A stretch of DNA of 64,000 nucleotides from an uncultured virus (IMG/VR IMGVR_UViG_3300021400_000104) (lineage: Duplodnaviria; Heunggongvirae; Uroviricota; Caudoviricetes), in the IMG/VR virus record IMGVR_UViG_3300021400_000104. One strand, 5' to 3'. Every line of letters starts with the position of its first letter. Position 1 is the first letter of the stretch. Below, in pieces: positions 24,353 through 49,109 of the stretch. The position numbers and the translations under genes are program-made. The notes under the pieces are model-generated. The model was not told the DNA's origin and did no database searches. It saw nothing but the letters and a program-made list of their open reading frames with translations.

Positions 24353-24357
24353 AAATA

Positions 24358-27884: not shown

Positions 27885-27886
27885 AT

Positions 27887-28408: not shown

Positions 28409-28482
28409 GACCGAATCCCGCCCTTCGGGGCGGGAGACCCCGCTAAAAGCACCAGACGAACGTCTGGAGAATGGAGGATATT

Positions 28483-28890
28483 ATGCTGCACCATGTAAAC
28501 ATGACCGAGACCATTACGTCTACGACCGAGCTGTCGCCGCTCCTTGACGTAGTCCTCCCCGTGACCCTCCCCGTCGAGATCTGGATTCCGAGCTGGATGG
28601 GGATGATCCCTAACACCGAGCTCGACCCGATCGACCTGATTCACACGCCTGTCAAGTGCGGCGCGATCGGCGCGATGACCGCCTATGCCCTGCTGCATAC
28701 GATGCTTGAGCAGATCTCGACCGGTGCCGATCTCAAGACCTGCATCAACGCGGCTGACGATCTCAACGAGCTCTATCATAGCTATGACATCGAGATCGAC
28801 AAGGATCACGGTCGCTGGATCATGATGATCGACTGCCATCCCACAAGAGCAGAGATCGTCGTCGATCTGTCCGGCCTTGTAAATTGGTAA
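28483..28890 (+). CDS. Hypothetical early protein (~135 aa), N-term resembles 27432-27884
   Basis: RBS; VEIWIPSWM vs IEIPSWL; terminator 28893-28919. Confidence 0.65.
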   Translation: MLHHVNMTETITSTTELSPLLDVVLPVTLPVEIWIPSWMGMIPNTELDPIDLIHTPVKCGAIGAMTAYALLHTMLEQISTGADLKTCINAADDLNELYHSYDIEIDKDHGRWIMMIDCHPTRAEIVVDLSGLVNW

Positions 28891-29727
28891 AAAGGAGGGG
28901 CTTATGCCCCTCTTTTTTTATCGAAAAATTTTAGTGATTTAAAGCGTTAAAGTCACCCCACGTTTAGCGCTTTAAAGCGCAAAAGTCCGCCCCTACTTTT
29001 CACCGCTTTAAAGCGTTAAAGTCTGCAACAATTTTAGCGATTTAAAGTGCTGAAATTATACGATTTGTATAATTTTAATTGTCAAAAGTTGCCACCCCTT
29101 TATTGCTTTAAAGTGTAGAAGCTGCCCTGCATTTAGCGCTTTAAAGTGCTAAAAGGGCGTTTTTCGGGACATTAGGCGTTTTTAGGGATTGACAAAAGGT
29201 CAGAAATGTGGTATAATAGAAGGGTAAGGGGGATCGAGGCACCCCGGATAAAAACAGGGGTGGAGTCTGCATATATGGATATATTAATATATATATTAAT
29301 ATATGTATGTATTGGCGAGCTACGTTTCGAGCTGCGCGAGCTACATTTCGAGCTACACTTCTAACAATATTTTTTTGTGCAAAATTACTAAAATGCGAGC
29401 TGCGTTTTTGAAAAGTTCCTATCCCTACACTAAAAAGTAAAATATTTTAACAATTTAATATATTATATTTTTCTTATTTTATCAATTAATTTTATTAAAA
29501 CTTTTATGCCCCATTTTGTTAATTCATTTAACTTATTAATTCTTATAATATATTTATTAATAAAATACTATATGTAATATATTATTATTTATAATAATAT
29601 TTCCCCTCATTTTTATTGTTTCATTTTTGGTACACTTCCCATTTTTTCTATTGATTTTTTTCTTCCCTTATGTTATAATATATATAGAAAATGAAACAAA
29701 AGAAATAATCCCTAAAGGAGGAGAACT

Positions 29728-29832
29728 ATGAAAAAGTCTACTACTAAAATGACTCACAAAGGTTATGCTTACATTACCAAGAAGGCCGCTCACAAGAAAA
29801 TCCGTAAGGCACTTAACAAGACTACTGACTAA
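29728..29832 (+). CDS. Small basic peptide (34 aa)
   Basis: Promoter, AAGGAGGAG RBS, MKKSTTKMTHKGYAYITKKAAHKKIRKALNKTTD. Confidence 0.55.
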   Translation: MKKSTTKMTHKGYAYITKKAAHKKIRKALNKTTD

Positions 29833-30131
29833 ATAAAAGGCCGATTTTTATATCAGTCTTTCGTTCAGCTCCCAGTAGAAATTTCTCGAATACTCGCACC
29901 CCTACTTCTCAGTGCTTTAAAGTGTTAAAGTCTAAAATATTATTGCCCTATTTTGTTAATATATTTAATTAATTAATAGATATATAATATATATATTTTC
30001 TGCAATTTTATTTAAATATTTTATCTTTATTTATTAATAATAAATCTATAAAATAAATGTCCCCTTAAAAGTCCATTTATTTTCTATAAAACTATTGACT
30101 TTTAATTATAGTTGTGATATAATATATATAG

Positions 30132-30342
30132 TAAAAGAGGATACGTCCTCTTAGATACTCCTACGAAGGATGACGGATAAATCCGGCGGGCGTGCCAACC
30201 CTAACAACACAGGCCGGCAAGAGTTGAGTCGTAAAAACTGACGAGGCGCCGCGTTAGGTAAACTCTACAGAATTTATATCTGCCGGGTGTCCACTTCGTG
30301 CGACACAGGAAGACAACCCCGCAAAAACGGCAGATATATTTT
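30132..30342 (+). ncRNA. Candidate structured non-coding RNA
   Basis: TTGACT/TATAAT promoter, no RBS-ORF, GC-rich island with stems (TATATCTGCCG/CGGCAGATATA). Confidence 0.4.
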
Positions 30343-30981
30343 CTTAGTTATTATTTTGTTAATTTTTTTAATTTATTAAAATGTACAGCTCCCAGTTGAT
30401 ACTTTAGAACTTTAAAGAATTAGAGTGTCCCTACGTTTAATGCTTTAAAGTCCTAAAATATTTTCTTTTAATCTTTATATATTTTAATACTTTAAATTCC
30501 TAAAATATTTTCGCCCTACTTTTTAGCAATTTAAAGTGCTAAAGTTCCTAAATATATTCTGCCCTTTTTACTATTTGTATTAATCCCCTTTTTCTATTAT
30601 TTTTTTATCAAATATTTCATCCCCATTTTGTTAAAAAATTTAATATTTCTCCCTACCCCTAAAACGGACAGCTCCCGGCTTATCAAAAGATAAGCCAAAG
30701 AGCAATTGCCGCCCCGGCAAACGGAACGAGGAAGGAAATTCCCTGCATGAAATAGCAAACCGCCTCAAAGATGTTCTTCATATTGTTTTCCTCCTTTGTT
30801 TTACTGTAATTATATTATAGCATATATCTTGTATTTTGTCAAGGGGTTTTTAAAAAATAAATGTGCCGCCACAAGGACATTTTTTTCTAAAAAACTATTG
30901 ACAAATCAAAAGAGATGTGGTATAATAATATTGTAAGGTAAAGAGAACACAAGAATAAAATAAAAATGAGGAGGTAATAAT

Positions 30982-31236
30982 ATGACTTACGATGAGGAGA
31001 TGCACCGCGCCGCTTACGGGTGCGACGTTGTCCGCGTGGTTGCTTACCGCTGCGAGGACGAGGACAAGCCCTATATGTGGAGGGTAACGTACTACGACGG
31101 GCACGAGACCGACTTCTGGCGCATGTGCGGGTCGCTGCCGTCCTATGTGAAGGGCTTTATGGCAGATGTACGGCACTATGAGGATTACAACGAGGAGACC
31201 AACGAGTGGGAAGAGACATGGTCGCCGGGTGCTTAA
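30982..31236 (+). CDS. Hypothetical early protein (84 aa)
   Basis: Promoter, RBS, terminator. Confidence 0.7.
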   Translation: MTYDEEMHRAAYGCDVVRVVAYRCEDEDKPYMWRVTYYDGHETDFWRMCGSLPSYVKGFMADVRHYEDYNEETNEWEETWSPGA

Positions 31237-31377
31237 GGGGCTTTTGCCCCTTTTCCCCTATTACAAAACTTTAGTCCTTTAAAGTCCAAAAGTCCAGCTC
31301 CCTACTTTTAGCGCTTTAAAGTGTTGAAGTTTAAAGCGTTAAAATAAAAAAAGAGGGCGAAAAATCGCCCTCCCCTT

Positions 31378-31533
31378 TTACGCGGTCACGCGCATAACAT
31401 CGAGATCGTACTTCCTCCCCTTCCAGTAAGTCCAGTCATAACGCGCGCACGCCTTCAGGCACTCAACATAAGTGCCGCGGAACAGGTCGAGGATCACATG
31501 GCCATCGCTTGCTACACCGTAAACAGTATACAT
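31378..31533 (-). CDS. Hypothetical early protein (51 aa)
   Basis: Promoter, AAGGAGG RBS, terminator. Confidence 0.6.
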   Translation of the reverse strand: MYTVYGVASDGHVILDLFRGTYVECLKACARYDWTYWKGRKYDLDVMRVTA

Positions 31534-31699
31534 ATTGTACCTCCTTATTAGTCGTGGGGTTTTCTTTATCTTACATATATATTATAGCATATCTTAAAAG
31601 AAAAGTCAAGGGGTTTTTAAAAAATATTTGTCCTTTTTCAGAAACATTTTTTTCTTAAAAAGTCTTGACAAATCAAAAGAGATATGGTATAATATTATT

Positions 31700-31885
31700 G
31701 TAAGGTAAAGGCAAGAGTAAAGTCAAAGATGAAACAACACGATTTAGTGTTACCGCATTATGCGGAATTAGTCGGCGATCAATGATCTACCTTTACGATA
31801 GGAGTAGCTCAAAATAAAGTAAGAGCAGGCATTTAGTTGCTATGTATAGGTGCAAGCCCTATCTCCTATCCATCGCTTACCATTT
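31700..31885 (+). ncRNA. Candidate ncRNA containing tRNA-like domain (31797-31872)
   Basis: Promoter without ORF; ATAGGAG/CTCCTAT acceptor, GCTC/GAGC D-arm, ATAGG/CCTAT T-arm. Confidence 0.45.
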
Positions 31886-31975
31886 AGGGAGAACATATGT
31901 TCTCCCGCCCTACTTTTAGCGCTTTAAAGTGTTAAAATATTAAAGAAAAATGAACGGCGTCCTACTGGATACCGT

Positions 31976-32203
31976 TCACACAAAATTCATTTTTAATTCA
32001 TTTATGCGAGGAGACGGGGCGCGGGGACGTGCCGCGCCGATAGTTGCCTCCCGCGTCCCTGCCGTCGGCATCCACTCGGTAACGGACGGCGGCGCGGACT
32101 CATTCGAGTTGATCTTGTTAGACGGAACGCCGAAAACCTCCCGTGCGTTCCAGTTAATCGGCTCCCGGAAAACCGAGATTTTCCACTTTTTAGTCATTTT
32201 CAT
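31976..32203 (-). CDS. Hypothetical protein (75 aa)
   Basis: Promoter and RBS. Confidence 0.45.
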   Translation of the reverse strand: MKMTKKWKISVFREPINWNAREVFGVPSNKINSNESAPPSVTEWMPTAGTREATIGAARPRAPSPRINELKMNFV

Positions 32204-32714
32204 TTCCTCCTTTATATCTTTACTACATTCTTATTATATCACATTTTTTCGGATTTGTCAAGAGTTTTTTGAAACTTTTTTTATTTTTTATTCTTTTTTT
32301 CTTTTTTCTCTCCTCCTTACATATACATTATAGCACATATCAAATAATAATGCAAATCAATTTTAAAAAAATACGGATTTTTCCGCGATATATGGGCAAA
32401 AATATTTGTACACTATGCTTAATTCTTTCAATTATAGAGTATATTTCTTGTGCATCTTGCCGAACATCGCCCTACTTTTAGTGCTTTAAAGCGTTAAAAT
32501 CCAGAAAGTCATATCTTTGTGCATCTTATACAAAAATACTAGAGAAATGTTGAAAAAATTATACAAACTCCACAAACTTAAAAAGGCATTTTCCCGCGAT
32601 ATATCGCGATTTTTTAGCCCTTGAAATTTGACAAACTCAAAGAAATATGCTATAATGTATATGTAAGGTAAAGGAAAAGCACCGATCGAAACGATCGGAG
32701 AAATGAGGTAAAAT

Positions 32715-32849
32715 ATGAAGGCTATCTACAAGAAGAACACTCTCGGCAAGTACGCGATTGACTTCATCGGCAAGAAGGCTCTCCGCAAGCGCGCTAAGCG
32801 TCGCCTCCGTCAGCAGTCTCGCCAGCTCTGCAAGAGCTACATCGGCTAA
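32715..32849 (+). CDS. Small basic peptide (44 aa)
   Basis: Promoter, leader hairpin, RBS, terminator. Confidence 0.55.
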   Translation: MKAIYKKNTLGKYAIDFIGKKALRKRAKRRLRQQSRQLCKSYIG

Positions 32850-32993
32850 AAGAAAAGGGCGAGAAATCGCCCTTTTCATTCTCTTTATAAGAGAACATAT
32901 GTTTGCTTTAAAGCGCTAAAGCACCCTACTACTCAACGCTTTAAAGTGTTAAAGTTTAAAGTATCAATTTAATTTTAAATGAGGGCAAGCGGC

Positions 32994-33182
32994 TCAAGGC
33001 CGCTCGAAAACCTCATGCTCCTCGATGGTATACTGCGCCTCCTCACCGTACCAGGTCTCGATCATCTGCTGACCGTGCATCTGAATGTATGCTGCCGCGG
33101 CAGTCTCGGTCGAGAAGATCGCATCAATCACACGGCCGCCGTACTCATCATCAACAAGAACCATCACAGCAAATACAGTCAT
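32994..33182 (-). CDS. Small early protein (62 aa)
   Basis: Promoter and AAGGAGG RBS. Confidence 0.65.
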   Translation of the reverse strand: MTVFAVMVLVDDEYGGRVIDAIFSTETAAAAYIQMHGQQMIETWYGEEAQYTIEEHEVFERP

Positions 33183-33426
33183 ATTAGTTCCTCCTTATGG
33201 ATTGTTTGTCTTTGTTTTTACCTTACATATACATTATAGCACATATTAAAAAATAATGCAAGTTCTTTTTCTTAGAAATAAAGATTTTTTCGCGATATAT
33301 AGATAAAAATATTTGTGCAACATGCTTGAATATTCTTTATATTGTACATACTTTTTGTGCAGTTCGCCGACGCCCCTACTTTTAGCACTTTAAAGTGTTA
33401 AAGTATTGAAATAAGAAAAAGGGCGA

Positions 33427-33612
33427 TCACTCGCCCTTTACCTTCCAGATCTCAACCTCGTAGAGGTTGTCCTCCTTATCGGTAATAATCAGAAGGTCAT
33501 CCCGCATAGCGTCCATCTTTTGCCCGTTTACCTCATGGAAGGCGGTGTGGAGATCGGTGTACACGCCAACGATGCAGTCTGCTGCAAAGTTCTTCACAAC
33601 ATATACAGTCAT
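33427..33612 (-). CDS. Small early protein (61 aa)
   Basis: Promoter, RBS, terminator. Confidence 0.65.
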   Translation of the reverse strand: MTVYVVKNFAADCIVGVYTDLHTAFHEVNGQKMDAMRDDLLIITDKEDNLYEVEIWKVKGE

Positions 33613-33938
33613 ATTAGTTCCTCCTTTAGGACTTTGTCTTTACTACATTCTTATTATACCACATTTTCGCGGATTTGTCAAGAGGTTTTGAAAACTTTTT
33701 TTATTTTTTTTGTTTTCTTTACCTCCTCTTTACATATATATTATAGCATATTCTAAAAAATAATGCAAGTCCATTTCTAAAAAATTAAAACTTTTCCTTG
33801 ATATATGGGCAAAAATATTTGTGCAACTTGCTTAATTATTTGCTATATAATGTATATTTTTTGTGCAACTTGCCGCATACCGCCCTACCTTTCAGCGCTT
33901 TAAAGCGTTAAAGTAAAACAAAAGGCCGAAAAGGCCGA

Positions 33939-34400
33939 TTAATCGGCCTTCTTCGGTTTGTATGCAGCAGCCATCCAATACGCGAGACTGCCCATTTTCT
34001 GCGTAACATCGACCTTTTTCTGGTCGATCTGCTCCTTTGCCTTTGCGCGCTCCTCCTTATCCTTTGCGATCTTTGCGGCCTTCCGCTCTGCTGCGGCGGC
34101 CTTGTCAGCGGCGTTCTGCTCCGCATTTACACGGTACTTTTCCGCGATCGCCGGCGCATCATAGGCCTTCAGGGTCTTACTTTTGGTCTTGCGCTCGACA
34201 AAGTTGTGAATCGTGGGCGAATAGGTAGCATAGATCGGGAGACCATCCGGCGACTCGCCGACCTTAACAGCGATCTCGGAGTCGCCCGTCTGGTAGACGT
34301 TCGTCTCGCCGCAGATAGCGGTCATCGCCTTAACAAGGGCGGCGAAGGCGTCAGGGCGGACAGCGTTCATGATCTGTACAGGGGTCATCTTCTTATCCAT
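33939..34400 (-). CDS. Hypothetical early protein (153 aa), paralog family with 42099, 47637, 49399
   Basis: RBS; shared GExNV..IAVxVG..DG motif. Confidence 0.7.
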   Translation of the reverse strand: MDKKMTPVQIMNAVRPDAFAALVKAMTAICGETNVYQTGDSEIAVKVGESPDGLPIYATYSPTIHNFVERKTKSKTLKAYDAPAIAEKYRVNAEQNAADKAAAAERKAAKIAKDKEERAKAKEQIDQKKVDVTQKMGSLAYWMAAAYKPKKAD

Positions 34401-34974
34401 ATTGTACCTCCTTGCGGACTGTTTTCCTTTATCTTACATATACATTATAGCATATCTAAAAAGAAAAGTCAAATCAGTTTTTAAAAATGAGGGGATTTTC
34501 TGCGATATATCGCCAAAAATATTTGTGCAACATGCTTAATTTTCTATTTTTCTGCTGGCACTTTTTGTGCAATCTGCCCGACACCGCCCTACTTTTAGCG
34601 CTTTAAAGCGTTAAAGTATCCTTTGTGCATACTGAATAAAAAATAAGAGAAAATGTTGAAAAAATTATACAAACCTCATAAACTTAAAATGATGTTTTTC
34701 CGCGATATATCGCGATTTTTTCACCATGAGAATTTGACTTTTCCCGAAAATTATAGTATAATATATATGTAAGGTAAAGAGAACGGAAAACAAAAAAACC
34801 GAAAACCTCAAAACCTTACAAAAATACCACAACGGATCTTGTGCAAAACGCCGAAAATCAAAAAAGGCCTTGACAAACTCCGAAAAATGTGGTATAATAA
34901 GAGTACAGGGTGAGGGAAAAGCCCAAAACCCGAAATTAACACCAGCAGAACGCTGGAGAAATGGAGAAAACACT

Positions 34975-35358
34975 ATGACTATGAAGGACTTTATGACCGC
35001 TGTTATCGCTGCCAAGATTTCTGACGAGATGACCGCCTTCGCAGAGGGCGAGATCCAGAAGCTGGAGGCCCGTGCTGAGAAGCGCCGGACCACTCCGACC
35101 AAGGCACAGCTCGAGGCGGGTGCGCTGCTCGACGCTCTGATTGCCGGCATGGTTGCGGGTGAGCCTGTGACCTCCGCGTCGATCGCTGCGGCCATGGAGA
35201 TCTCGCCCCAGAAGGCGACCAGCCTGCTCCGTGCGGGTGTTGCTGCGGGGCGGCTGACTGAGATCGGCACCATCAAGGGCAAGAGCGGCAAGGTGAAGGC
35301 CTACGCTCTGCCCGAGGGCAGCTCCGAGGACAGCTCCGAGGACAGCTCCGAGGGCTGA
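34975..35358 (+). CDS. Putative winged-helix DNA-binding protein with acidic SSED tail
   Basis: TSASIAAAMEISPQKATSLLR HTH-like segment; paralog of 43262 and 58401. Confidence 0.65.
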   Translation: MTMKDFMTAVIAAKISDEMTAFAEGEIQKLEARAEKRRTTPTKAQLEAGALLDALIAGMVAGEPVTSASIAAAMEISPQKATSLLRAGVAAGRLTEIGTIKGKSGKVKAYALPEGSSEDSSEDSSEG

Positions 35359-35601
35359 TCCTCTGCCCTGAAAAGGGCGAAAAATAGCGCATACGAGGGG
35401 CGGGCAATAGTCCGCTCCGTCCGTTTTTTATTCGCTTTAATACTTTAAACTTTAACACTTTAAAGCGGCGAAGTGGTAGGGAGAAGTAGGGGAGGCAGGG
35501 CTTTAGCGCTTTAAAGCATTGAATTGTAGGGCAGCAGCGCTTTAAAGTGCTAAAGTAATTAACTAAAAGTATTGTGTCCGTCAATGACGGACACTAACTT
35601 T

Positions 35602-36084
35602 TTAGAAGATCACCTCCTCGATAATAGTCTCGAGCGCGCCAACAACCGTCCAGTCTTTGTCGATATTTAGTGCTTTTCTCTGCGTGGCCGTTTCCCACAT
35701 CTTACATACCTCTGCATTATCATCAATTAAATACATAGTTTGTGCGCGTTTCTGGATACATTTTTGTTTAGGTGTGCCATAGGAAACACAATTGAACTCG
35801 GAGATAAAGGGCATATTTTCCCTAATCCAAGCCATTTTCTCGGCGCGGCATACCTCCTCATATTCAACGCTCGCTTGCATCGGCAGCCAGGTGATGATTC
35901 CGAATTGTACGCCGTAGGCGGACAGCTCCTTGATAGCAGAGAAGAAACGAACGAGGTCGATTTCGGGGAGGAAGTTCCCAACGAAGGCGCCGCTCTGCTC
36001 GTTCTCCAAAAGGTCAAGCCAGTTGGCCTTCCCATAAAGGTCAAAAACAGTGCCGTCCATATCGAAATAGATTTTAATGCTCAT
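35602..36084 (-). CDS. HAD-superfamily phosphatase (5'(3')-deoxyribonucleotidase-like)
   Basis: IYFDMDGTV motif I, K..W, LIDD motif IV. Confidence 0.75.
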   Translation of the reverse strand: MSIKIYFDMDGTVFDLYGKANWLDLLENEQSGAFVGNFLPEIDLVRFFSAIKELSAYGVQFGIITWLPMQASVEYEEVCRAEKMAWIRENMPFISEFNCVSYGTPKQKCIQKRAQTMYLIDDNAEVCKMWETATQRKALNIDKDWTVVGALETIIEEVIF

Positions 36085-36525
36085 TTATTTTCTCCTTTGC
36101 GGTTGCTTTGTCTTTACCTTACATATACATTATAACATATTTCTGCGAGTTTGTCAAGAGGTTTTTCAAAATTTTTCGTTTTTTTAATCCGAGAGCAAAA
36201 CCATCTCCCCAACAAAACAAAGCAGGCAAGCAACCCCAACATAACCGAGTAGCACCCACTTGCCAAAATATGCCATGATAATGGGAGAAGTCGTAAACAT
36301 TACCATACCGAGGGAGAACCCAACGCGTGCAAGAGTTTTTTTCATAGTTTGTCAACCTCACTTTCTATATACATTATAGCATATTTCTGCCGGCATGTCA
36401 AGAGGTTTTTAAAAATAATTATCCCTCTTTCGAAACATTTTTTTCTTGAAAAGTATTGACAAATAAAAAGGGATGTGGTATAATATATATGTAAGATAAA
36501 GGAACGCCCATAAGGAGGAATAAAG

Positions 36526-36759
36526 ATGACTAATTTTGAAGAGTACAAACTTTTTTCAAAAATCTGCCATCAGGTCAGTGAAATGATGCCCGATAATATG
36601 ACGGATGCTGAGTATTTCGCTATGTATAGCCGATTGGCAGCAGATTTTGCAAATAGGGTAACAAAGTACCTTTACGCCATAGTAGATGAGGAAAAACATG
36701 ATCCTGAAGAGGACGACTCCGAAGAGGACGACTCCGAAGAGGACGACCCGCCTCATTGA
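36526..36759 (+). CDS. Hypothetical protein with acidic EEDDS repeats (77 aa)
   Basis: Promoter, RBS. Confidence 0.65.
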   Translation: MTNFEEYKLFSKICHQVSEMMPDNMTDAEYFAMYSRLAADFANRVTKYLYAIVDEEKHDPEEDDSEEDDSEEDDPPH

Positions 36760-36824
36760 GGCGGGCGCCCTACGTTTAGTGCTTTAAAGTGCTAAACTTT
36801 AAAGCATTAAAATTCGCCTATCCC

Positions 36825-37034
36825 TTACAGAAATAGGCGAAAAGTATTGTATAGATTTAGAGTCAAAAAGATACCGTTAATAAGTGCCGCGGCAACTGCC
36901 TTTCCTTTAATCGCCTGAATAAGACCGAACACAGAGGATACACAGAACATAGGCGCCGACAGCGAGGATCCAACACCGCACAGCGCGGCGGCAATAGCGC
37001 ACAGAAAAACAGAAATCCAGTCAGTTTTAGTCAT
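36825..37034 (-). CDS. Small membrane protein (69 aa)
   Basis: Hydrophobic segments; promoter and RBS. Confidence 0.6.
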   Translation of the reverse strand: MTKTDWISVFLCAIAAALCGVGSSLSAPMFCVSSVFGLIQAIKGKAVAAALINGIFLTLNLYNTFRLFL

Positions 37035-37222
37035 TTTTGTTTTCTCCCTTCGTTCTTACTATATATATTATATCACATTTTTTTGTATCTGTCAATAGGT
37101 TTTTAAAATTAATTGTTTCTCAAAAAGGACAATTATCTATTGACAAATAAAATAAAATATGATATAATATATGTGTAAGGTAAAGAGAAACACAGAGCAT
37201 AAATAATAAGGAGGAAAAACAT

Positions 37223-37570
37223 ATGACTTTTTATATTCCCGCATCTTTTGATGATGCCAACTATGCACCTTCCTGGACCGGCAATTATACCTATCCTACG
37301 GTCACCATCCGGGGAATTTTCGACTCCATGGAGAAGGCAACGCAAGCCCTTGAAGGCTGGGATTTTGCGGAGGACTGTGATATTCTCGAGCGGGAGCTTG
37401 ATGACTACAACCTCCCAGATAATCCCTCCTTCAGTATTGACTATGACGGAGACTATGGTCTTACGATCTGGTCAGATGAACACGGTTGTTATGGGCTAAA
37501 TGAAATCGTTGACGAGGCATACTCCGCAGTTTATGATGAAAACGGCTATCTCGGCGTAACAGACTACTAA
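37223..37570 (+). CDS. Hypothetical acidic protein (115 aa)
   Basis: Promoter, RBS, terminator. Confidence 0.7.
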   Translation: MTFYIPASFDDANYAPSWTGNYTYPTVTIRGIFDSMEKATQALEGWDFAEDCDILERELDDYNLPDNPSFSIDYDGDYGLTIWSDEHGCYGLNEIVDEAYSAVYDENGYLGVTDY

Positions 37571-37725
37571 AAGAAAAGGGCGAGAAATCGCCCTTTTTTA
37601 TACCATTTCTCTTTTATTGCTTTAAAGTGCTAAAGTCCCTACCTCTTGCCCTACTTTTAACGCTTTAAAGTTCTAAAGTTTAAAGTATTAAAGCAATAAA
37701 AAGGACGCCTTCCGGCGTCCTCTTT

Positions 37726-37938
37726 TTACCCCTCCTCAAAATACAGTACAACGACCTTGCTGCCATTGCGATAGATACGACCGCCCCTGCCATTGGCGCC
37801 GCTTGCCTTATACCCATACTTGGTCAAAACCTCATATACGTTAAATGCCCCGATGGGAACGGTGAACACCTCCAGATGCCGCTTGCTTACCTCGTAGACG
37901 TGCGCGCACTTTTCCAGATCCTTCTTGAAGTTCTCCAT
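37726..37938 (-). CDS. Hypothetical protein (70 aa)
   Basis: Promoter, RBS, terminator. Confidence 0.6.
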   Translation of the reverse strand: MENFKKDLEKCAHVYEVSKRHLEVFTVPIGAFNVYEVLTKYGYKASGANGRGGRIYRNGSKVVVLYFEEG

Positions 37939-38116
37939 ACTTCCTACCTCCTTTACTATATATATTATAGCATATTTCAATTAAAAAGTCAAGGGCTTTT
38001 TAAAAATAAATATCCTTTTTTTGAAACATTTTTTTCTAAAAAGGTATTGACAAATAAAAAGAAGTGTGATATAATATATATGTAAGATAAAGAAACACCC
38101 ATAAGGAGGAATAAAG

Positions 38117-38335
38117 ATGACTGACAAGGAAATGCTTGCAAAAACCGCGCTGACTCGTTTCAAGAAGGACGTTGACCATCTCAATGCAGAGGCATTCCGC
38201 CGCTATTCCGTTCTTATCTACCTTGAAAAGAAACAGGATTTAACTTATGATGACGTCTGCTGTGCAGAATCCTGGATTTCTCATTCTACTAAAACCGCTG
38301 ACGAGATTATCCGAATTCTTGAGGAGGGCAAGTAA
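38117..38335 (+). CDS. Hypothetical protein (72 aa)
   Basis: Promoter, RBS. Confidence 0.65.
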   Translation: MTDKEMLAKTALTRFKKDVDHLNAEAFRRYSVLIYLEKKQDLTYDDVCCAESWISHSTKTADEIIRILEEGK

Positions 38336-38422
38336 TTGCCCTCCTCCCTACTTCTATCGCTTTAAAGTTCTAAAGTTTAAATCACTAAAACATAAAAATA
38401 AAGGCCGGAAATCGGCCTTTAG

Positions 38423-38647
38423 TTATCCCTTCTCTATCCCATTAATAATATCATTTGCATCCCGCTCATAAACGGTCGCCGCGTCTAACGTTTCCTTCAC
38501 AAGAATCCAAAAAGAATCCTCGTCAAGAAATTCATAATTCTCAATGATATATTGACTAACGTCCTCCAGTCGTTTTGCTTTTTTCTTCAAATAATATGCT
38601 TCATCAATAAAATTCCCCCAGATTTGCATAGCAGTATTTTTATCCAT
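38423..38647 (-). CDS. Hypothetical protein (74 aa)
   Basis: Promoter, RBS, terminator. Confidence 0.65.
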   Translation of the reverse strand: MDKNTAMQIWGNFIDEAYYLKKKAKRLEDVSQYIIENYEFLDEDSFWILVKETLDAATVYERDANDIINGIEKG

Positions 38648-38855
38648 ACTTTTACCTCCTTATTGTCTTTGTGTTTCTCTTTATCTTACAATATTATTAT
38701 AGCACATAATAAAAGAAAAGTCAAGGGGTTTTTAGAAAATAAATGTGCCGGCAAAGAAACATTTTTTTCTGAAAAACTATTGACAAATAAGATAGAATGT
38801 GTTATAATATATATGTAAGATAAAGAAAAATAACATACACAAGGAGGAAGTAAAG

Positions 38856-39026
38856 ATGGTTGAATATGTTATTTATGCAATGGGCGATTATGCCCATGCA
38901 GTCGCATTGACGACTGACAAAAGTGCAGCAGAAGCAGAAGCGGACAGACTTTTCTGCCATGGTATTGATACCTATATTGAAGAGATAGAAGTCAATGATG
39001 GTATCACCGACTTACTGAATGATTAA
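38856..39026 (+). CDS. Small early protein (56 aa), paralog of 40779 and 42620
   Basis: MVEYVIY..ALTTDKSAAE; RBS. Confidence 0.6.
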   Translation: MVEYVIYAMGDYAHAVALTTDKSAAEAEADRLFCHGIDTYIEEIEVNDGITDLLND

Positions 39027-39506
39027 GGAGGAAAATATGGTAAAATTTACGGACACGAACGGCAAGACCACGATGATTGACCGCGCGGAATTTATGCGAC
39101 TTATGAAGGCACTTGCTGAGGTCGCGCGGCTTAACAAAGAGGAAAAGAAAAAGGAGAAGGGCGAGTGATCGCCCTTTTTCTCATATAAGAACATATGTTC
39201 TGCTTTAATACTTTAAAACGTTAAAATCCCGCCCCTACTACTTTACCGCTTTAAAGTGCTAAAGTAAAATCAGAAAGTCGTTCTTTTGTATACTTTGCAC
39301 AATTTCTATTGCGTTTTACTTGCTTTTATTGTACAAACTTCACAAAGTTTTTTATAGGTTTTTTGGCTATATATCGCGAAAAATTCACTTATCAATTTTG
39401 ACTTTTCTATCTCTTTGTGATATAATATATATGTAAGGTGAAGGGGAGGACAGAAGATAAAAGAAGTCTTGAACGCTCCATCTTCACAGAATAGGAGGAA
39501 AATCAA

Positions 39507-40166
39507 ATGGACCGTCATTATTATCTCATGATCGACACAGAAACGACTGGCGACCTAGACTCGCCCCTTGTCTATGACCTGGGGATGCAGGTTATTGACA
39601 AGAAGGGCAACGTATACGCAGAGTATAACCTCGTAATTTCTGACGTATTCTATGGTATGCCGGCACTTATGAACACGGCCTATTATGCCGAAAAGTTGCC
39701 GTCTTACTACGAGGAAATCGACCGCAAGGAACGAGTCGTCGTAACATGGGAATATGCACAAAGTTTGGTAAAATTCTTGTGCGACTTCTACAAAATCAAG
39801 GCAATTGTCGCCCATAACGCGCGGTTTGATTATACCGCTTGTAATAATACGACCTCAATAATAAAGGGCTTCAAATCGTACTTTTTTCCCTATGGGATCC
39901 CGATTTGGTGTACTTTGACAATGGCGCGGCAAACTGTAGGACGTCAAAAGACCTATGTCGAATGGTGCAGAAATCGCGGATATATCACCAAAAACGGCGC
40001 GCCGCGCCTTACTGCGGAGGTGCTTTACCGCTATTTATCGCGAAATAATGACTTTATCGAGAAACATACTGCATTAGAAGATGTTAAGATAGAAAAAGAG
40101 ATTTTCGTCTGGATTATGCGGCAACATAAGGCAATGCGCCGAACGTATTACAAAGAGCGGACTTGA
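39507..40166 (+). CDS. DEDDh 3'-5' exonuclease
   Basis: IDTETTG, AHNARFD, HTALED motifs. Confidence 0.85.
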   Translation: MDRHYYLMIDTETTGDLDSPLVYDLGMQVIDKKGNVYAEYNLVISDVFYGMPALMNTAYYAEKLPSYYEEIDRKERVVVTWEYAQSLVKFLCDFYKIKAIVAHNARFDYTACNNTTSIIKGFKSYFFPYGIPIWCTLTMARQTVGRQKTYVEWCRNRGYITKNGAPRLTAEVLYRYLSRNNDFIEKHTALEDVKIEKEIFVWIMRQHKAMRRTYYKERT

Positions 40167-40364
40167 TCCGCTTTTTGTACTATTTGTATACTTCAACGCT
40201 TTAAAGCAGTGAAGGGTAGGGCGGGGCAACGCCTAGTATTCCTATAGGTTTAATAGGTTTAGTGCCGGCAAAATAGACAAATAGAGTTAGAAAAGTTTGT
40301 GCATTTCGACGATTGACAAGTCAAAAGAAAAGTGGTATAATAGTATATGTAAGGAGGGGATAAA

Positions 40365-40697
40365 ATGAAGAAAAAGGTTCTGTATTCAGTAGATGTATAC
40401 ATCGAGGCGGTAAGGATCGCCGAACGACTCGGTCACGACTATATCGGAACGGCGCACTTTGTTTATGCCTTCCTTAAACTGACTGACCAAAAGTCTTTTG
40501 CTAACTTCGCTTATAAGTATCTGACCGAGCAAATCGGCGTATATAAACCGCGCAGACTCCAAGGTTTGTACTATACTGAAATACTTATGGAACACTACGA
40601 AAAGTCAGTTAATCCCGAATATGTAATTATGTCCATATATCGGGATAAAGAGTGTGAAGGCGGAAAAATTCTTGATGCAATAGCGCGGGGCGCGTAA
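40365..40697 (+). CDS. Stand-alone Clp N-terminal domain-like protein
   Basis: AERLGHDYIGTAHFVYAFL resembles the ClpC/ClpB N-repeat (A..LGHxYIGTEHLLLGL). Confidence 0.6.
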   Translation: MKKKVLYSVDVYIEAVRIAERLGHDYIGTAHFVYAFLKLTDQKSFANFAYKYLTEQIGVYKPRRLQGLYYTEILMEHYEKSVNPEYVIMSIYRDKECEGGKILDAIARGA

Positions 40698-40778
40698 GCC
40701 CCCGCTAACCGCCCTACTTTTACCGCTTTAAAGTTCTAAAGTTTAAAGTACTAAAGTATAAGAAGAAAGGCCGAAAAA

Positions 40779-40961
40779 TCAGCCTTTTTTAAGAGGTGGA
40801 AGATTCGTTATTTTTTCATTGACAAAAATTTCCTCCTCAAACGCCATAAATCCCTTCTCCCACCAATAATTGAGCATCTCTTCTACGGCCGCTTTACTCG
40901 TAGTTATATGTAAAGCAACATACCGTCCATTAAATTCTATATAAATTATATATACCTTCAT
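40779..40961 (-). CDS. Small early protein (60 aa)
   Basis: Promoter, RBS, terminator. Confidence 0.6.
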   Translation of the reverse strand: MKVYIIYIEFNGRYVALHITTSKAAVEEMLNYWWEKGFMAFEEEIFVNEKITNLPPLKKG

Positions 40962-41170
40962 ATTTTCCTCCTTATTGGTGTTTCTCTTTATCTTACAATA
41001 TTATTATAACATAAATTTTAAGAAAAGTCAAGGGGTTTTTAGAAAATAAATGTGCCGGCAAAAGGACATTTTTCTCTTGACAAAAATCAAAAAGTATGCT
41101 ATAATATATATGTAAGAAGGACAGAGAACAGAACAAACAAACATCGCTAAAAAGTATTGGAGGTAAGATT

Positions 41171-41377
41171 ATGACAATTAAAGAATTTGTTGAATCTTCT
41201 GACTTTTACACTGATGAACTTTGTTTTGAAATCTACTATTCTGGCAAAACAATTAAATATAATCTTACTAAACAAGAATTATGCCCTTATTATAATGAAA
41301 AAATCAAAGGACTTGACTTTACTACTGCGGGCGATAATTCCGGCGAATCTTATCTTACTATCACATTTTATATTTAA
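41171..41377 (+). CDS. Hypothetical protein (68 aa)
   Basis: Promoter, RBS. Confidence 0.6.
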   Translation: MTIKEFVESSDFYTDELCFEIYYSGKTIKYNLTKQELCPYYNEKIKGLDFTTAGDNSGESYLTITFYI

Positions 41378-41464
41378 GAAATAAAATTCCCCTCATCTTT
41401 GTGCAAAATCACTATTGACAGAAATTAAAAAGTATGCTATAATAATATTGTAAGGAGGCAAGAA

Positions 41465-41686
41465 ATGAAAACAGTAAAAGAAATTCTAATAGAACAGGGC
41501 GCACATTTTGACGAGTTTCCTCGTGGTAATAACTTTGTGTATAAAATAAAGTCTCATTATACAGAATGTTATAATAAAGTTCCTGTTCGTTCCTATTGGC
41601 GATATACTGGGCAAGTAATTATTGCCGATAAATCGGGAAAAATCGTTGGGTTTGAGACTTGCGAAACGACAGAAATTGACGAATAA
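41465..41686 (+). CDS. Hypothetical protein (73 aa)
   Basis: Promoter, RBS. Confidence 0.6.
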   Translation: MKTVKEILIEQGAHFDEFPRGNNFVYKIKSHYTECYNKVPVRSYWRYTGQVIIADKSGKIVGFETCETTEIDE

Positions 41687-41785
41687 AATTCTAAAACTTT
41701 GTGCAAAATGACTATTGACAAAAATCAAAAAGTATGCTATAATAGTATTGTAAGGTAAAGGCAAAGACCTAAAGGAGGTAAAGTT

Positions 41786-42007
41786 ATGAAGGTATGGGTT
41801 GTGACATGGATTGAGGATGTGGGCGAGTTTAGGGTATTCTCCTCTAAAAAGCTGGCATGGAATTATATTTGTGAATACTATAAACGAGTTGCCGAATTTG
41901 GCAATGAAGATTATAATGAATTAAAAAAATCTTATGAGGAAGGAGGCGACTGTTTCTGCAATGAATATATCATAGCAGTTGAAAAAACCGTTGACGAAAA
42001 AAATTAA
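41786..42007 (+). CDS. Small early protein (73 aa), similar to 62672
   Basis: Promoter, RBS; MKVW..FSS..A. Confidence 0.6.
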   Translation: MKVWVVTWIEDVGEFRVFSSKKLAWNYICEYYKRVAEFGNEDYNELKKSYEEGGDCFCNEYIIAVEKTVDEKN

Positions 42008-42098
42008 AAAAATTTTTTCAAAACCCCTTGACAAAATCAAAAAAGTATGCTATAATATATATGTAAGGTAAAGGTAAAGACCTAAAGGAGGCAAATCT

Positions 42099-42467
42099 AT
42101 GATGGATCTTAAGGGCATGAAAAACGATACCGCACGGAAGGTCGCTATCCGCGCACAGCTTAACGAGGTTATTATGGCGGCGCTGATCGCGTGGCGCGGG
42201 GAGGAGAACGTCGTCTACATCCCTTATGCGATCGAGCCGAACGAGGGCAGCAAGATCAACGGCGGGTCGATCGCTGTGTGCGTCGGGACCGTCATCAATA
42301 AGGACGGCTTCGAGGTTGATGCGGTTGCGATCGTCTCCCCTGTTGTCAAGGGATGGAATGACGTTGTTACCAAAAGCGACCGCGTTACTCTTGCGATTAA
42401 CCTTGACGACATCCGCGAGGCAAATAAGGCAGAAATCGCAGCAAGAGGAGGGAAAAAGGGCGAGTAA
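42099..42467 (+). CDS. Hypothetical protein (122 aa), paralog family
   Basis: Promoter, RBS, terminator. Confidence 0.7.
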   Translation: MMDLKGMKNDTARKVAIRAQLNEVIMAALIAWRGEENVVYIPYAIEPNEGSKINGGSIAVCVGTVINKDGFEVDAVAIVSPVVKGWNDVVTKSDRVTLAINLDDIREANKAEIAARGGKKGE

Positions 42468-42619
42468 TCGCCCTTTTTTCTTATTAAGAATATGTTCGCT
42501 TTAGCGCTTTAAAGCGCTAAAGCCCCTACCTTATCCCTGCCCTACCTTCCAGCGCTTTAAAGTGCTAAAGTTTAAAGTGCTAAAGTATAAGGAGAAAGGC
42601 CGATAAATCGGCCTTCCTC

Positions 42620-42796
42620 TTAGTAGAGAAGAGATGTCAACCCCTTATCAATCATTACCATCTCAAAAAATGCCATAAGTCCCTTCGCCTCCCAGCGGTT
42701 TACCGTTCTTCTTGCGAGTTCCTTATCAAGGGTCAGATCTGTTGCAGTCCAATGGTCAAACTGGTTAGACTTTACATAAATCACATATACGGCCAT
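42620..42796 (-). CDS. Small early protein (58 aa), paralog of 40779
   Basis: MAVYVIYV..WEAKGLMAFFE; RBS. Confidence 0.6.
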   Translation of the reverse strand: MAVYVIYVKSNQFDHWTATDLTLDKELARRTVNRWEAKGLMAFFEMVMIDKGLTSLLY

Positions 42797-43261
42797 ATTA
42801 TTACCTCCTTATTGTCTTTGTGTTTCTCTTTATCTTACAATACTATTATAGCACATAATAGCGAAAATGTCAAGCCTATTTTAAAAATAAAATGTCCCTC
42901 TGCCGGCACAATTAAATTTCAAAAAACTATTGACTTTTCCCGTAACTTATGCTATAATTATAAATGTAAGGAGGACAGAGAACGGAACAGACAAACACCG
43001 CATGACGATGGGGAAAAGGTCAAATCCGTGAACACTGTTCACACCTATGGGGCGTCTGTGCAGATAGAATGGAAGTAGGCCGCCGAGGATCCCGGCGCAA
43101 CGCAAGCCCTCTCAAATCTGCACACATCCGCTTCTAAAAATTTGTGCAAAATGACAATTGACAAACTTCAAAAAATGTGGTATAATGTTAATAGAGGGTG
43201 AGGGAAAAGCCCAAAACCCGAAACGCACACCGGACGAACGTCCGGAGAAAAGGAGAACTTT

Positions 43262-43711
43262 ATGACCATCAAGACTTATGTTGACTTCCTGACCGCTGTC
43301 GCTGCTACTGCTACCGACCCCGAGATCAAGGCCTATGCGGAGGCCGCGATCACTAAGCACGATACCTCCGCCGACTCCCGCCGTGTAAAGGCCGCTGACA
43401 AGGCATGGACTGCCGCGGCCGACCTCCTCGGTTCGATCTCTTCGATGGTAGACCATGCCGAGCCGCTGACCTCTGCGACTGCTGCCGCTGCCGTTGGTAT
43501 CTCGACCCAGAAGGCCTCCGCTGTTCTGAAGGCAGGCGTCGCACATGGCGTTCTTGTTGAGGTGGATCCCGTCAAGGGTAAGTCCGGCAAGGTAAAGGCC
43601 TTCCGTTTCGCCACTGACCTCGCAGAGGATCCGACCGAGGACCCGGTAGAGGATCCGACCGAGGACCCGGTAGAGGATCCGACCGAGGATTCCGCTCCCG
43701 CTGAGGATTAA
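43262..43711 (+). CDS. Putative winged-helix DNA-binding protein with acidic DPTE/DPVE repeat tail
   Basis: Paralog of 34975; 12-bp tandem repeats 43625-43690; terminator. Confidence 0.65.
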   Translation: MTIKTYVDFLTAVAATATDPEIKAYAEAAITKHDTSADSRRVKAADKAWTAAADLLGSISSMVDHAEPLTSATAAAAVGISTQKASAVLKAGVAHGVLVEVDPVKGKSGKVKAFRFATDLAEDPTEDPVEDPTEDPVEDPTEDSAPAED

Positions 43712-44553
43712 GAAAAGACCGCCCTTCGGGGCGGTTTTTTTTCGTTCCTAAAAAAGAACATATGTTCCGCTTCAACGCTTTAAAGCGCCAAAGCCCCTAC
43801 CTCTTACCCCTACCTTCCACCGCTTTAAAGCGATAAAGCGAAGTCTCTATCAATTCAATACTTTAAAGTGTGAAACGTCGGGGCACCCAGTATCCCTATA
43901 GGTTTACTAGGTTAGCAGATTGCACAAAAACCGTATATCGCTCTTGAAAAACTTTGTGCAAATTGCCTATTGACAAATTCCAAAAAATATGGTATAATAG
44001 TATTAGAAAGAGACCGGAAGGCAGAGAGTAGAGGGGGAGATCTAACCTATAGTTAGCATAGGCTAACCATTGAGAAATGGCTATTTTGCGTTACCAATTT
44101 TTAGCAATTAATTAAATCTTTTAACTTAAAAATTTTAATACTTTAAAGCGCTAAAACCTAGTATTTCTATAGGTTTAATAGGTTTAATGGGCGAATGTAT
44201 GTTCACCCAGTATTCTTATAGGCTTAGTAGGTGAATGGGCGTCTGCCTCGGCGTGCCCGCCCTACCCTACCGCTGCACCATCCCCAACAAACCGGCCGGT
44301 GAGCTGCATCCGTGAGCTGCGATTCGTCTGTGAGCTGCATCTGTGAGCTGTAATCCAAGCGAGCTGCACCCTCCCATGAGCTGCGCCGGCACTATAGAAA
44401 AATGGGGTATATATAATATATCCGCGAGCTACAACTACCGGCTGTGCAAGACAAGTCCTCCCTACCTTCATCGCTTTAAAGTGCTAAAGTATAAAAATAA
44501 AAGCCAACCGCCTATTCGGCGAATTGGCTTAATCTGTTCTCAAAAGGGCGCCA

Positions 44554-44847
44554 TCAATCTTCATCATCTGAATAAGCGCGCCTAAAGCGCTCAGTCTTGT
44601 CTATCAGGTAATCCGCAAAGTTAAGAATCTGTTCCGCATCATCAACATAGATGCGCCCTGCGAGTATCGAGAACATCAACTTAAAGGCACGGCCTGCAGT
44701 CTTGACCTGCTTTTCATCTGGAGGAAGGGGACGCTTCTCTTCCTCCTCCGCAAAGAGATTGTAAAGGAATCCTGCGGTATCTCGAACCTCATCGGACTCC
44801 GGGTTGTCCAGAATAGCACGGAAAAGTTCAGAATTCAAATCCATCAT
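44554..44847 (-). CDS. Hypothetical protein (97 aa)
   Basis: GAGGAGG RBS. Confidence 0.6.
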   Translation of the reverse strand: MMDLNSELFRAILDNPESDEVRDTAGFLYNLFAEEEEKRPLPPDEKQVKTAGRAFKLMFSILAGRIYVDDAEQILNFADYLIDKTERFRRAYSDDED

Positions 44848-45668
44848 CCTGATCGTCCTCCTCTATTGCAGTAGGCTTTACTTTACTTTTAATCTTAATA
44901 ATTAAGAAAGCATCACATTGGTATTTTCTCCCTTCCTTGTTCTTCCTTTACCTCTTATAGTTTAATTCTTAATAATTACTAAAGTACCACATCGGAATCA
45001 TCCCCTTAACTATTTTATATTCATTATCTCTCATTTACTATATATATTATATCATATTTTTAGAAAAAAGTCAATTAACTGGTTGTAAATAAAATATAAA
45101 TGCTTAGTGACTAGAATATAAGTGCCGCGGCACGCTAATATTTAGCATTGTTATGGGGCGCAATACCTAGTATTTCTATAGGTTTAATAGGTTTTCGCTC
45201 CCAGAACATATCAACTAGTCCTGCCGCAATCTTCCTTTTGTCCAAACGAAGCAAGATTGTAGGGCGTTGTCAATCAATTGACTCGATACGTTTCCTCTTG
45301 AGCTGTGAGCTGCGTTTGATACTTTAGAAAAAAACGCCGAAAAATAAAAGTCAATTGATTGGCTCGGCCGCGTTTTATTATACTGTTACCATATCTCCTG
45401 ATACTTTAGAAAAAAACGGTCTTTTCTTGTTGCCTTGTTTGAACAGGAGCTCCGTATAAATGTGTCAAAATCCCGTACCGAAAAATTTTTCACGGAGGAT
45501 TATTTTAAACCCCAATTTACGATACCATCCTGTAAGCAAATTCAAAGCAAATTCGCCTATGAAAAATTCACCGGCGCTCTATAAAAATTTTTCCAATTCC
45601 ATACCCCTATTTTACCACTCTATAATAAGTAAGGGGGCTATCTTTTTTGATAGCCCCCTATATAATCT

Positions 45669-49033: not shown

Positions 49034-49109
49034 AACTAATCAACTCCATTTTATAAGTATTTTGTATTCCATAATTCTTACTACATAAAGATATAGCCAT
49101 TTAAGAATA

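Follow-up and report, generated by a model that had tools for sequence, protein, structure and literature searches.

The closest described counterparts of the element analysed here are the repetitive extragenic palindromes (REPs) of bacterial chromosomes and the Promoter early Stem-Loop (PeSL) cassettes of T4-like phages. In the available part of a survey, REPs are described as tagged palindromes of 20-40 bp that occur mostly between convergent or unidirectional genes and frequently have G-T pairs in their stems (PMC3733652). PeSLs, according to the available parts of two reports, combine a host-type early promoter, which has an AT-rich upstream part, with a stem-loop terminator in hyperplastic regions of small orphan genes, and insertions or deletions (indels) and replacements between close T4-like relatives end at these repeated cassettes (PMC2839356; PMC4122927). 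The element in question is an array of short palindromes in the early region of an uncultured Caudoviricetes phage (IMG/VR record IMGVR_UViG_3300021400_000104), of which a stretch of 64,000 nucleotides (64 kb), the window, was analysed; confinement, wherever it is stated for this phage, means confinement within these 64 kb. We read the array, with a probability of about 50%, as a phage-borne family of extragenic palindromes similar to REPs and to bacterial interspersed mosaic elements (BIMEs), which would act as a boundary between transcription units and as a recombination junction, much like the PeSLs of T4. The unit family is shared with bacterial chromosomes, its members are placed at boundaries and they coincide with edges of gene modules, and the repeat probably helps phages to swap small genes.

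The number of units was determined by several scans of the window. The 23-mer given by the original prediction, allowing up to three mismatches, had 32 matches on both strands, all of them in 28930-44489, and 100 dinucleotide-preserving shuffles of the window had none. The 8-mer core CTTTAAAG was present in 35 copies, 34 of which lie within 28.9-44.6 kb, and a position-weight scan with a threshold of 12 bits returned 63 matches, of which 61 fall inside the region and two are outliers at 8279 and 27028. Altogether, 37 full 24-bp units and nine shifted or half units make up 22 clusters, all located within 27.0-44.5 kb, in agreement with the original prediction of about 20 clusters confined to one region. 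The alignment of the 37 units (A3) has the consensus TTTTAGCGCTTTAAAGTGCTAAAG, with a mean column identity of 83%, and the short-form consensus of the full units is TTTTAGCGCTTTAAAGYGCTAAAG. The unit is an imperfect palindrome centred on TTTAAA and composed of CTTTA/TAAAG words, the pentamers recurring every 7-8 bp; in the weight-matrix scan the right arm and the half units were better conserved than the left arm. A CCCTAC tag (GTAGGG on the other strand) adjoins 22 of the 37 full units at a distance of 0-2 nt, 19 in + orientation and three reversed (35450, 35501 and 40191), the latter at the two places where reversal had been predicted. Inside the region the word CCCTAC has 26 copies on the + strand and four on the - strand, compared with a single copy per strand in the remaining 48 kb of the window. 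The usual order of a composite cluster is a unit, one or two tags, a second unit and a 15-nt half unit (TTTAAAGYRCTAAAG). Unit starts within clusters are 15-66 bp apart, whereas the spacing from cluster to cluster is irregular, from about 300 to 1750 bp, and shows no regular repeat-spacer period, so that the earlier exclusion of a CRISPR array holds. Rfam at gathering score identified only 22 tRNAs and one transfer-messenger RNA (tmRNA) over the window and left the array without a match, and megablast of the 28-45 kb segment against the phage collection gave no match.

The array is embedded in an early region of about 30 small genes with strong ribosome-binding sites, nearly all without a known family. 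Each early module, comprising one or two genes, carries its own promoter, and modules occur in both orientations. The region contains 23 perfect (12-of-12) TTGACA-17-TATAAT promoters with a TG extension, and many of its extended-consensus promoters form back-to-back pairs about 55 bp apart; 87 promoter-like sites were counted where 45.2 were expected, and 42 terminator-like sites where the expectation was 19.8. A map of the junctions between modules, which includes some weaker promoters and six terminator hairpins added by eye, showed that all 11 convergent junctions hold clusters (12 clusters), while seven clusters are located in same-direction junctions and three in wide divergent gaps, two of the latter three closing a repeat of about 120 nt that is present in four copies. 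None of the eight back-to-back promoter pairs holds a cluster, and the four tandem units at 41077-42467, which are not separated by terminators, have no clusters between them either. A terminator hairpin lies within 35 bp of 15 of the 22 clusters, and the map thus confirmed the earlier description of clusters adjoining terminators between small modules driven by back-to-back promoters. The strand of the tag was constant whichever way the neighbouring genes run, and therefore its orientation follows the genome and not local transcription. In one RNA run, from the probable source sample, eight contig pieces, of a kind that shows neither ends nor absence of transcripts, covered gene bodies without overlapping a unit (pieces at 27572-27723, 31356-31519, 34022-34190, 34792-35390, 43019-43402 and 44517-44997). 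A reading of the units as promoters was rejected, as their spacing is not that of -35/-10 elements and they are situated past the terminators.

The region and its clusters are listed below by position, strand and content. The 12-mer GAACATATGTTC matches the consensus of the Gram-positive LexA (Cheo) box, CGAAC-N4-GTTCG, and it is listed as a Cheo-like box; the bovine-gut relative is a contig described further on.

27000-44600, + strand: standard-code early-gene region containing all motif clusters, about 32 small genes, intrinsic terminators and 31 sigma-A-type promoters of the extended consensus (19 on +, 12 on -).
27028-27051, no strand assigned: untagged outlying unit CTTTAGCGTAGTAAAGTGCTAAAG, with the sigma-like late gene on one side and the first early promoter on the other.
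28929-29154, + strand: cluster of six units at 33-36 bp spacing, beginning 17 bp past a terminator and ending 35 bp before the -35 of promoter 29189.
29900-29930, + strand: CCCTAC tag and one unit, tandem junction.
30402-30544, + strand: cluster of four units with two tags, convergent junction.
31269-31344, + strand: unit, tag, unit and half unit, enclosed by two terminators that face each other.
31891-31937, + strand: Cheo/LexA-box-like GAACATATGTTC, then tag and unit, convergent junction.
32470-32499, + strand: tag and unit closing the repeat of about 120 nt, wide divergent gap.
32893-32969, + strand: imperfect Cheo-like box, unit, tag, unit and half unit, convergent junction.
33374-33403, + strand: tag and unit closing the repeat of about 120 nt, tandem (- -) junction.
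33883-33913, + strand: tag and unit closing the repeat of about 120 nt, tandem (- -) junction.
34587-34616, + strand: tag and unit closing the repeat of about 120 nt, wide divergent gap.
35435-35555, - strand: reversed cluster of four units, enclosed by two terminators and with three tags that read GTAGGG on the + strand.
36768-36812, + strand: tag, unit and half unit; the bovine-gut relative is collinear again from 36766.
37612-37693, + strand: unit, two tags, unit and half unit, convergent junction.
38346-38375, + strand: tag and unit, convergent junction.
39189-39264, + strand: Cheo-like box, unit, tag and unit, tandem junction; the bovine-gut contig is collinear again from 39274.
40191-40221, - strand: reversed unit and GTAGGG, 12 bp past a terminator.
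40712-40756, + strand: tag, unit and half unit; small indels of the bovine-gut contig gather here.
42483-42585, + strand: imperfect Cheo-like box, a unit that is a perfect palindrome, two tags, unit and half unit, enclosed by terminators that face each other.
43756-43876, + strand: Cheo-like box, unit, two tags and two more units, tandem junction.
44133-44156, no strand assigned: untagged unit.
44460-44489, + strand: last tag and unit; the terminator of the - strand gene 44554-44847 follows after 19 bp.

Related phages were sought in IMG/VR with the sigma-like protein of the window as the query, which gave 11 loci at 47-65% identity. Three of the relatives (G001, G002 and G003) have the word pattern CTTTA-N3-CTTTA-N6-TAAAG. 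It is usually present as a pair of units connected through a G/C-rich linker, with a terminator on one side and, on the other, the AT-rich stretch that lies upstream of the next promoter; units of the relatives often lack self-complementarity in their central part. Whole records were then searched with the pattern CTTTA-N4-TTTA-N6-TAAAG, counting strand-hits and using the reversed pattern as control. The 150-kb G001 had 19 strand-hits, all at 90914-103090, and the 167-kb G002, a 100% complete genome with terminal repeats, had 16, all at 118393-129751; G003 had 29 strand-hits. The reversed control gave none, and the relatives G004 and G005 had no hits. Units were also carried by a distant relative, a 176-kb contig (G009) within a metagenome-assembled genome (MAG), whose sigma-like protein is 22% identical (E 6e-11) and in which a span of 16 kb contains 25 consensus promoters. 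Among the phages, late genes align at 72-80%, whereas the early regions do not align outside repeats, and the genes shared by the window and G001 differ in order and strand; the fixed order of modules among relatives that would have spoken against shuffling was thus not observed. Locus L002 shares early genes at about 52% identity and is without the CTTTA/TAAAG unit. Its positions 1-10000 contain 11 copies of an unrelated 22-bp palindrome, (A)TGGTCCGTA-NN-TACGGACCA(C), with a variable central dinucleotide and in the equivalent position, about 53 nt upstream of the -35 of each early promoter. In L001, a third palindrome is mixed with a few CTTTA/TAAAG units.

The unit is also a dispersed intergenic repeat of bacterial chromosomes, a point that the original prediction had missed; in some Firmicutes it is found among housekeeping genes. 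A collection of species genomes yielded 60 loci with the strict palindrome TTAGYRCTTTAAAGYRCTAA, some Bacillaceae and MAGs having several hits each, and in Bacillus-type genomes it abuts an GAGGGACAGTCCCTC hairpin. The Bacillaceae form of the repeat, TTAGYRCTTTAAAGYRCTAA + GAGGGACAGTCCCTC + TTAGYRCTTT..., was seen among loci L026-L085, especially L036, L039, L044, L045, L058 and L064. A 1.6-Mb Clostridia MAG (G013) had 92 strand-hits of the general pattern on 32 contigs and none for the control, often arranged as arrays of two or three units at a 37-bp period. Eight of these arrays are located between chromosomal genes, which encode PurL, a HisS-like protein, thymidine kinase (Tdk), a P-type ATPase (CopA-like), a class II aminoacyl-tRNA synthetase, a sigma-54 activator and TruA. 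Two Y1-transposase hits were obtained in the same MAG; one is of the plain IS200 type, while the other is a protein of 260 amino acids with HUH-like and Tyr motifs (PF01797, E 2.4e-15; best NCBIfam match REP_Tyr_transpos, REP-associated tyrosine transposase, 76 bits against a cut-off of 80). A four-unit array lies about 80-210 bp upstream of the gene for this 260-amino acid protein, and the contig ends on the other side of the gene. In a Bacillota MAG (G015), a REP-transposase-like gene has related elements on both sides. The tagged form differs from these bacterial copies, which carry other G/C-rich linkers in the place of CCCTAC, and among the collections searched it was found only in the window phage.

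The original prediction had proposed that the units are recombination sites for shuffling modules, and a comparison of indel edges among relatives supported this in part: the motif lies at module borders and some edges fall there, in the manner of PeSLs, while others fall elsewhere or at promoters, and a site-specific system of the integron/attC type did not receive support. The early regions of G001 and G002 are collinear at 91-99% identity apart from four events with eight edges, three of which are at motif units, one at a promoter -10 and four elsewhere. In the first event the break is exactly at the end of a unit. The second is a 580-bp module of G002 consisting of a promoter, a 76-aa gene, an 87-aa gene (borderline AbrB/MazE-like match of its protein, 24.2 bits against a cut-off of 24.7) and a terminator; it lies between two motif pairs, and G001 has one hybrid pair in its place. 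The third event is at neither motif nor promoter, and the fourth begins in a promoter -10. A second comparison was provided by a 6878-nt contig from a bovine-gut run, which is about 94% identical to the window and covers 35712-36122, 36766-38095, 39274-41779 and 42093-43010. Two of its six edges are at the motif and four at a promoter or leader, a count that leaves out most of the short-sided joints linking conserved promoters. The edge at 36122 is a promoter -10, that at 36766 a tag and unit, that at 38095 lies just past a promoter and that at 39274 just past a unit, while the direct joint from 41779 to 42093 removes one of four tandem modules via repeated leaders; small indels gather within the units at 37637-37654 and 40718-40756. 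The events are few, yet they fit exchange via any repeated regulatory DNA, as in PeSLs (PMC2839356; PMC4122927), and the finding of as many edges at repeated promoters as at the motif is consistent with homology-driven exchange.

In the model that we consider, the units would be boundary elements between very strongly transcribed units, and their possible roles, as with bacterial REPs, would be a back-up for termination, the binding of a host factor (gyrase, for example) or the relief of torsional stress where transcription units converge. The repeated units and promoters together would offer short homology for the gain, loss, swap and duplication of modules of one or two genes. More speculatively, a REP transposase of the host may have seeded the units or spread them by its action on single-stranded phage DNA; this would account for a tag that stays on one strand whatever the local transcription.

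Several results weigh against this interpretation. Bacterial REPs are dispersed, whereas the units of the window phage are confined to one region of 17 kb. REPs of Escherichia coli carry GTAG on the 5' side of the palindrome; the tag described here reads GTAG on the opposite strand, 3' of the palindrome, so that its polarity may differ. No Y1 transposase was found in two near-complete relatives or among the larger open reading frames (ORFs) of the window, no candidate was identified for a protein binding the unit, and at five of seven REP-transposase-like loci in four bacterial genomes there was no unit within 1.5 kb. The CCCTAC-tagged form had no hits in 301 genomes of the order of the Clostridia MAG and no matches in IMG/VR, and in the metagenome collection it was present only in the window's own sequence and in three other contigs that are 100% identical. 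Both edge comparisons are small, and half of the G001/G002 edges are at neither motif nor promoter. In addition, a conserved base-paired hairpin, as REP transposases need, is not supported because the two arms do not covary: paired cells amounted to 82.4% compared with 81.8% when the 3' letters were shuffled, and double changes were seen in two cells compared with 7.6 in shuffles (498 of 500 shuffles at least as high). In favour of the REP-like reading, the + strand showed a mild asymmetry, with 58 G-T pairs against 30 A-C pairs. The units look like arrays of TAAAG/CTTTA pentamers that are read as duplex DNA.

The main rival explanation holds that the units are an operator array on which a sequence-specific dimeric or multimeric DNA-binding protein, of the phage or of the host, binds the TAAAG pentamers at every unit border and governs the whole early region by shut-off, insulation or roadblock, recombination being a by-product, and we regard it as possible, if somewhat doubtful. 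The independent variation of the arms of a palindromic motif is as expected for protein contacts rather than base pairing; the pentamer period, the extra half units and the six units about 33 bp apart in the first cluster are also in favour of this rival. The unrelated palindromes at the equivalent place in L002, and another in L001, would be the pattern of operator-protein pairs changing specificity, and a Cheo/LexA-like box is fused to the unit in the window and in G003. The sites do not, however, overlap promoters in the window, and the search for a binder gave no candidate: the ParB_N domain was absent from the three genomes examined, and two families of early proteins were considered and rejected. 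Two winged-helix paralogs (34975-35358 and 43262-43711) are predicted to have a long helix, a C-terminal winged helix and an acidic tail (mean predicted local distance difference test score of the model, 82.5), and their Foldseek matches were weak (best E 0.012) and mostly MarR/ArsR/PadR regulators; they are poor candidates for a conserved binder because the family was detected in G004 only and not in the three motif-bearing relatives G001-G003. A multi-copy early family (33939-34400 and 42099-42467) with a Lys/Ala/Glu-rich helical tail is common to G001-G004 and G006, but no fold matched it and its distribution is independent of the type of motif, as it also occurs in the genome of L002, which has the other palindrome. 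Furthermore, the unit is kept in the relative with the 22%-identical neighbouring protein and, in bacteria, beside REP-transposase-like genes, which fits a host-level element better than a phage operator.

A stronger version of the REP-like reading would have host-type REPs recruited as the joints of a phage gene-cassette system: the units would be substrates of a host REP transposase working on replicating phage DNA in its single-stranded state, which would account for the polarity of the tag; units and repeated promoters together would let one-gene modules move between phages, and perhaps between phage and host, without a phage recombinase; and a host REP-binding factor such as gyrase might be recruited to the very strongly transcribed convergent junctions. 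We consider this version unlikely.

Very unlikely is the proposal that the unit works as a single-strand hairpin, in RNA or in single-stranded DNA, whether as a 3'-end processing or stability element, a priming signal or an N4-like hairpin promoter. The one shared strand orientation, the excess of G-T over A-C pairs on the + strand and the possible stem with 82% pairable positions are in its favour, but it was rejected for want of covariation between the arms: pairing was no better than column composition and double compensatory changes were fewer than in shuffles. The units also lie beyond canonical terminators, and in the relatives their central part often lacks the self-complementarity that a hairpin would have. 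To the claim that the units are dedicated site-specific recombination sites of an integron attC- or loxP-like kind, cut and joined by a recombinase for capture and shuffling of cassettes, we give hardly any credence. It is true that units flank modules, that duplicated motif pairs enclose one module where the sister genome has a hybrid pair, and that the tag gives each site polarity. Against this, neither a tyrosine recombinase (Phage_integrase domain) nor a serine recombinase was found in the two near-complete relatives or among the larger ORFs of the window, the Y1 transposase being likewise missing, and edges at repeated promoters are as numerous as at the motif. The attC analogy of the original prediction also fails on the modules themselves, which have their own promoters and both orientations, unlike integron cassettes, and a dedicated integron-like system is unlikely. 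Least probable of all is that the units serve as replication-origin iterons, or as a signal for packaging or DNA entry that has secondary sites scattered around. The six units about three helical turns apart in the first cluster, followed by a very AT-rich stretch at 29.4-30.1 kb, are in its favour. Against it, some 30 other units are spread along unit borders over 15 kb, the CTTTA/TAAAG unit also lies between bacterial housekeeping genes, and no replication initiator was identified nearby.

Further sequence analyses revealed other repeated words in the early region. The exact 12-mer GAACATATGTTC is present at 31891-31902, 39189-39200 and 43756-43767, with imperfect copies at 32893 and 42483, and it is fused to the left side of units just past + strand terminators; the relative G003 has a Cheo composite of CGAACAAATGTTCG and CTTCAGCACTTTAAAG (L014, at about 6546, 10199 and 14859 when counted on the reverse complement), and in L004 five copies of such a composite follow one another in tandem. 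Four repeat copies of about 100-120 nt (32361-32462, 33268-33369, 33774-33875 and 34478-34579) contain two TTTGTGCAA boxes each and end in CCCTAC and a unit, and TTTGTGCAA also occurs about 10 nt upstream of the -35 of the + strand promoters 40296, 41398, 41698, 43141 and 43953. Words of the form GGGAGCTG or CAGCTCCC were found near several clusters and also in L004. Arrays of the word GAGCTRC lie near both ends of the motif region on the + strand, with at least five copies at 29305-29400 and at least seven at 44290-44440, beside short alternating AT runs. The leader GTAAGRTAAAG, which contains the motif word TAAAG, follows the -10 of about 19 early promoters (for example 30933, 34769, 38082 and 42063, and on the - strand 31564, 36112, 42828 and 48062); the relatives have AGTAAAG in its place. 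Behind the consensus promoter 30095, a G+C-rich non-coding stretch (30130-30345, + strand) folds at -66.3 kcal/mol, with a z of -3.37 and none of 200 shuffles as stable, and has no Rfam family. The promoters 29189, 31665 and 43970 are likewise without a convincing ORF, and together with 30095 they may drive small RNAs.

The window belongs to a phage whose late genes read TAG as glutamine. With the standard code, the window has 36 ORFs of at least 150 amino acids, totalling 6754 amino acids, compared with 56 ORFs and 15598 amino acids when TAG is read as a residue, 12203 of these on the - strand. With TAG as glutamine, 1-26.9 kb is a - strand late block that includes a tape measure protein, a portal (E 6e-56), a terminase and the sigma-like protein. 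Late genes have up to 28 in-frame TAG codons each, while the early region is open under the standard code; the G+C content of the early region is 0.38-0.49, compared with about 0.30 in the late block. No suppressor tRNA was found among the 23 tRNAs of the window. These tRNA genes (49109-62070, - strand) adjoin a tmRNA gene (62966-63312, - strand; Rfam, 103.7 bits) and are interspersed with GIY-YIG genes (48410-49033 and 61099-61851) and PD-(D/E)XK endonuclease genes (57241-57678 and 59058-59465). The terminase large subunit is apparently split (21506-24361, - strand) into an N-terminal piece (23960-24361) and a C-terminal piece (21506-22876), with an HNH/homing-endonuclease ORF (23034-23771) between them. 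The virion family phrog_2729 is represented by four tandem paralogs (4935-13242, - strand) of 458 to 925 amino acids, with alike termini and very different middles, and by a fifth copy of 300 amino acids (3941-4843).

Most of the small genes that phages direct against their hosts and against defence systems are kept in early regions, whose fast turnover is poorly understood outside T4-like phages. The present case is a recoded gut phage clade in which T4-like modular turnover is joined by an extra boundary element from a bacterial repeat family tied to REP transposase-like genes. If this link is true, systems of REPs and REP-associated tyrosine transposases (RAYTs), so far treated as chromosomal, would be tied to phage genome plasticity, and the unit would provide a sequence handle for host prediction and a simple marker delimiting early-gene cassettes in uncultured phages. 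No open-access paper describing REPs in phages was found, and the words "phage", "Firmicutes" and "Clostridi" have no occurrences in the available part of the REP survey (PMC3733652).

Comparison with described systems places the array closest to REPs and PeSLs, with several more distant resemblances. Integron attC sites are likewise imperfect palindromes between small genes without known function, and they differ in that the modules described here have their own promoters and terminators, both orientations and no integrase found. The KorB operators (O_B) of the IncP plasmid RK2 are 12 copies of a 13-bp palindrome with TTTAGC...GCTAAA arms, located at variable distances from promoters and bound by a global regulator of the ParB family. 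Their arms resemble TTTAGCGC...GCGCTAAA of the present unit; the palindrome of the window is, in contrast, centred on TTTAAA, and ParB_N had no match in three relatives. The stoperators of cluster A mycobacteriophages, as far as the accessible part of their description goes, share the many copies of a short site in intergenic gaps with a consistent orientation, whereas they are 13-bp asymmetric sites of a known monomeric repressor, oriented with transcription, and the present units are palindromic and ignore it. With REPs, BIMEs and REP doublets forming hairpins (REPINs), the array shares a short imperfect palindrome, here of 24 bp, in many copies, an extragenic position at convergent or same-direction junctions downstream of coding sequence, an occurrence as singletons, dimers and clusters, and G-T pairs, as these elements are described in the available part of the survey (PMC3733652). 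The CCCTAC tag may correspond to the conserved unpaired tag, of the GTAG or CGTC type, at one end of such elements. The dispersal of the unit family in a Clostridia MAG adds to the likeness with REP/RAYT systems, as may its presence beside RAYT-like genes in two genomes, and the array differs from these systems in the tags on nearly always one strand, the lack of covariation in the stem and the lack of a RAYT in the phage relatives. With the PeSLs of T4-like phages the array shares the concentration of consensus promoters and terminators in an early region of small genes without families, as well as the location of edges at motif or promoter (four of eight for G001/G002 and six of six for the bovine-gut contig, a small sample). 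A PeSL, whose neighbouring copies can exchange to form circular DNAs, consists of promoter and stem-loop only, while in the window a third and separate element, the tagged palindrome, lies outside both and belongs to a family that is present in bacterial chromosomes too.

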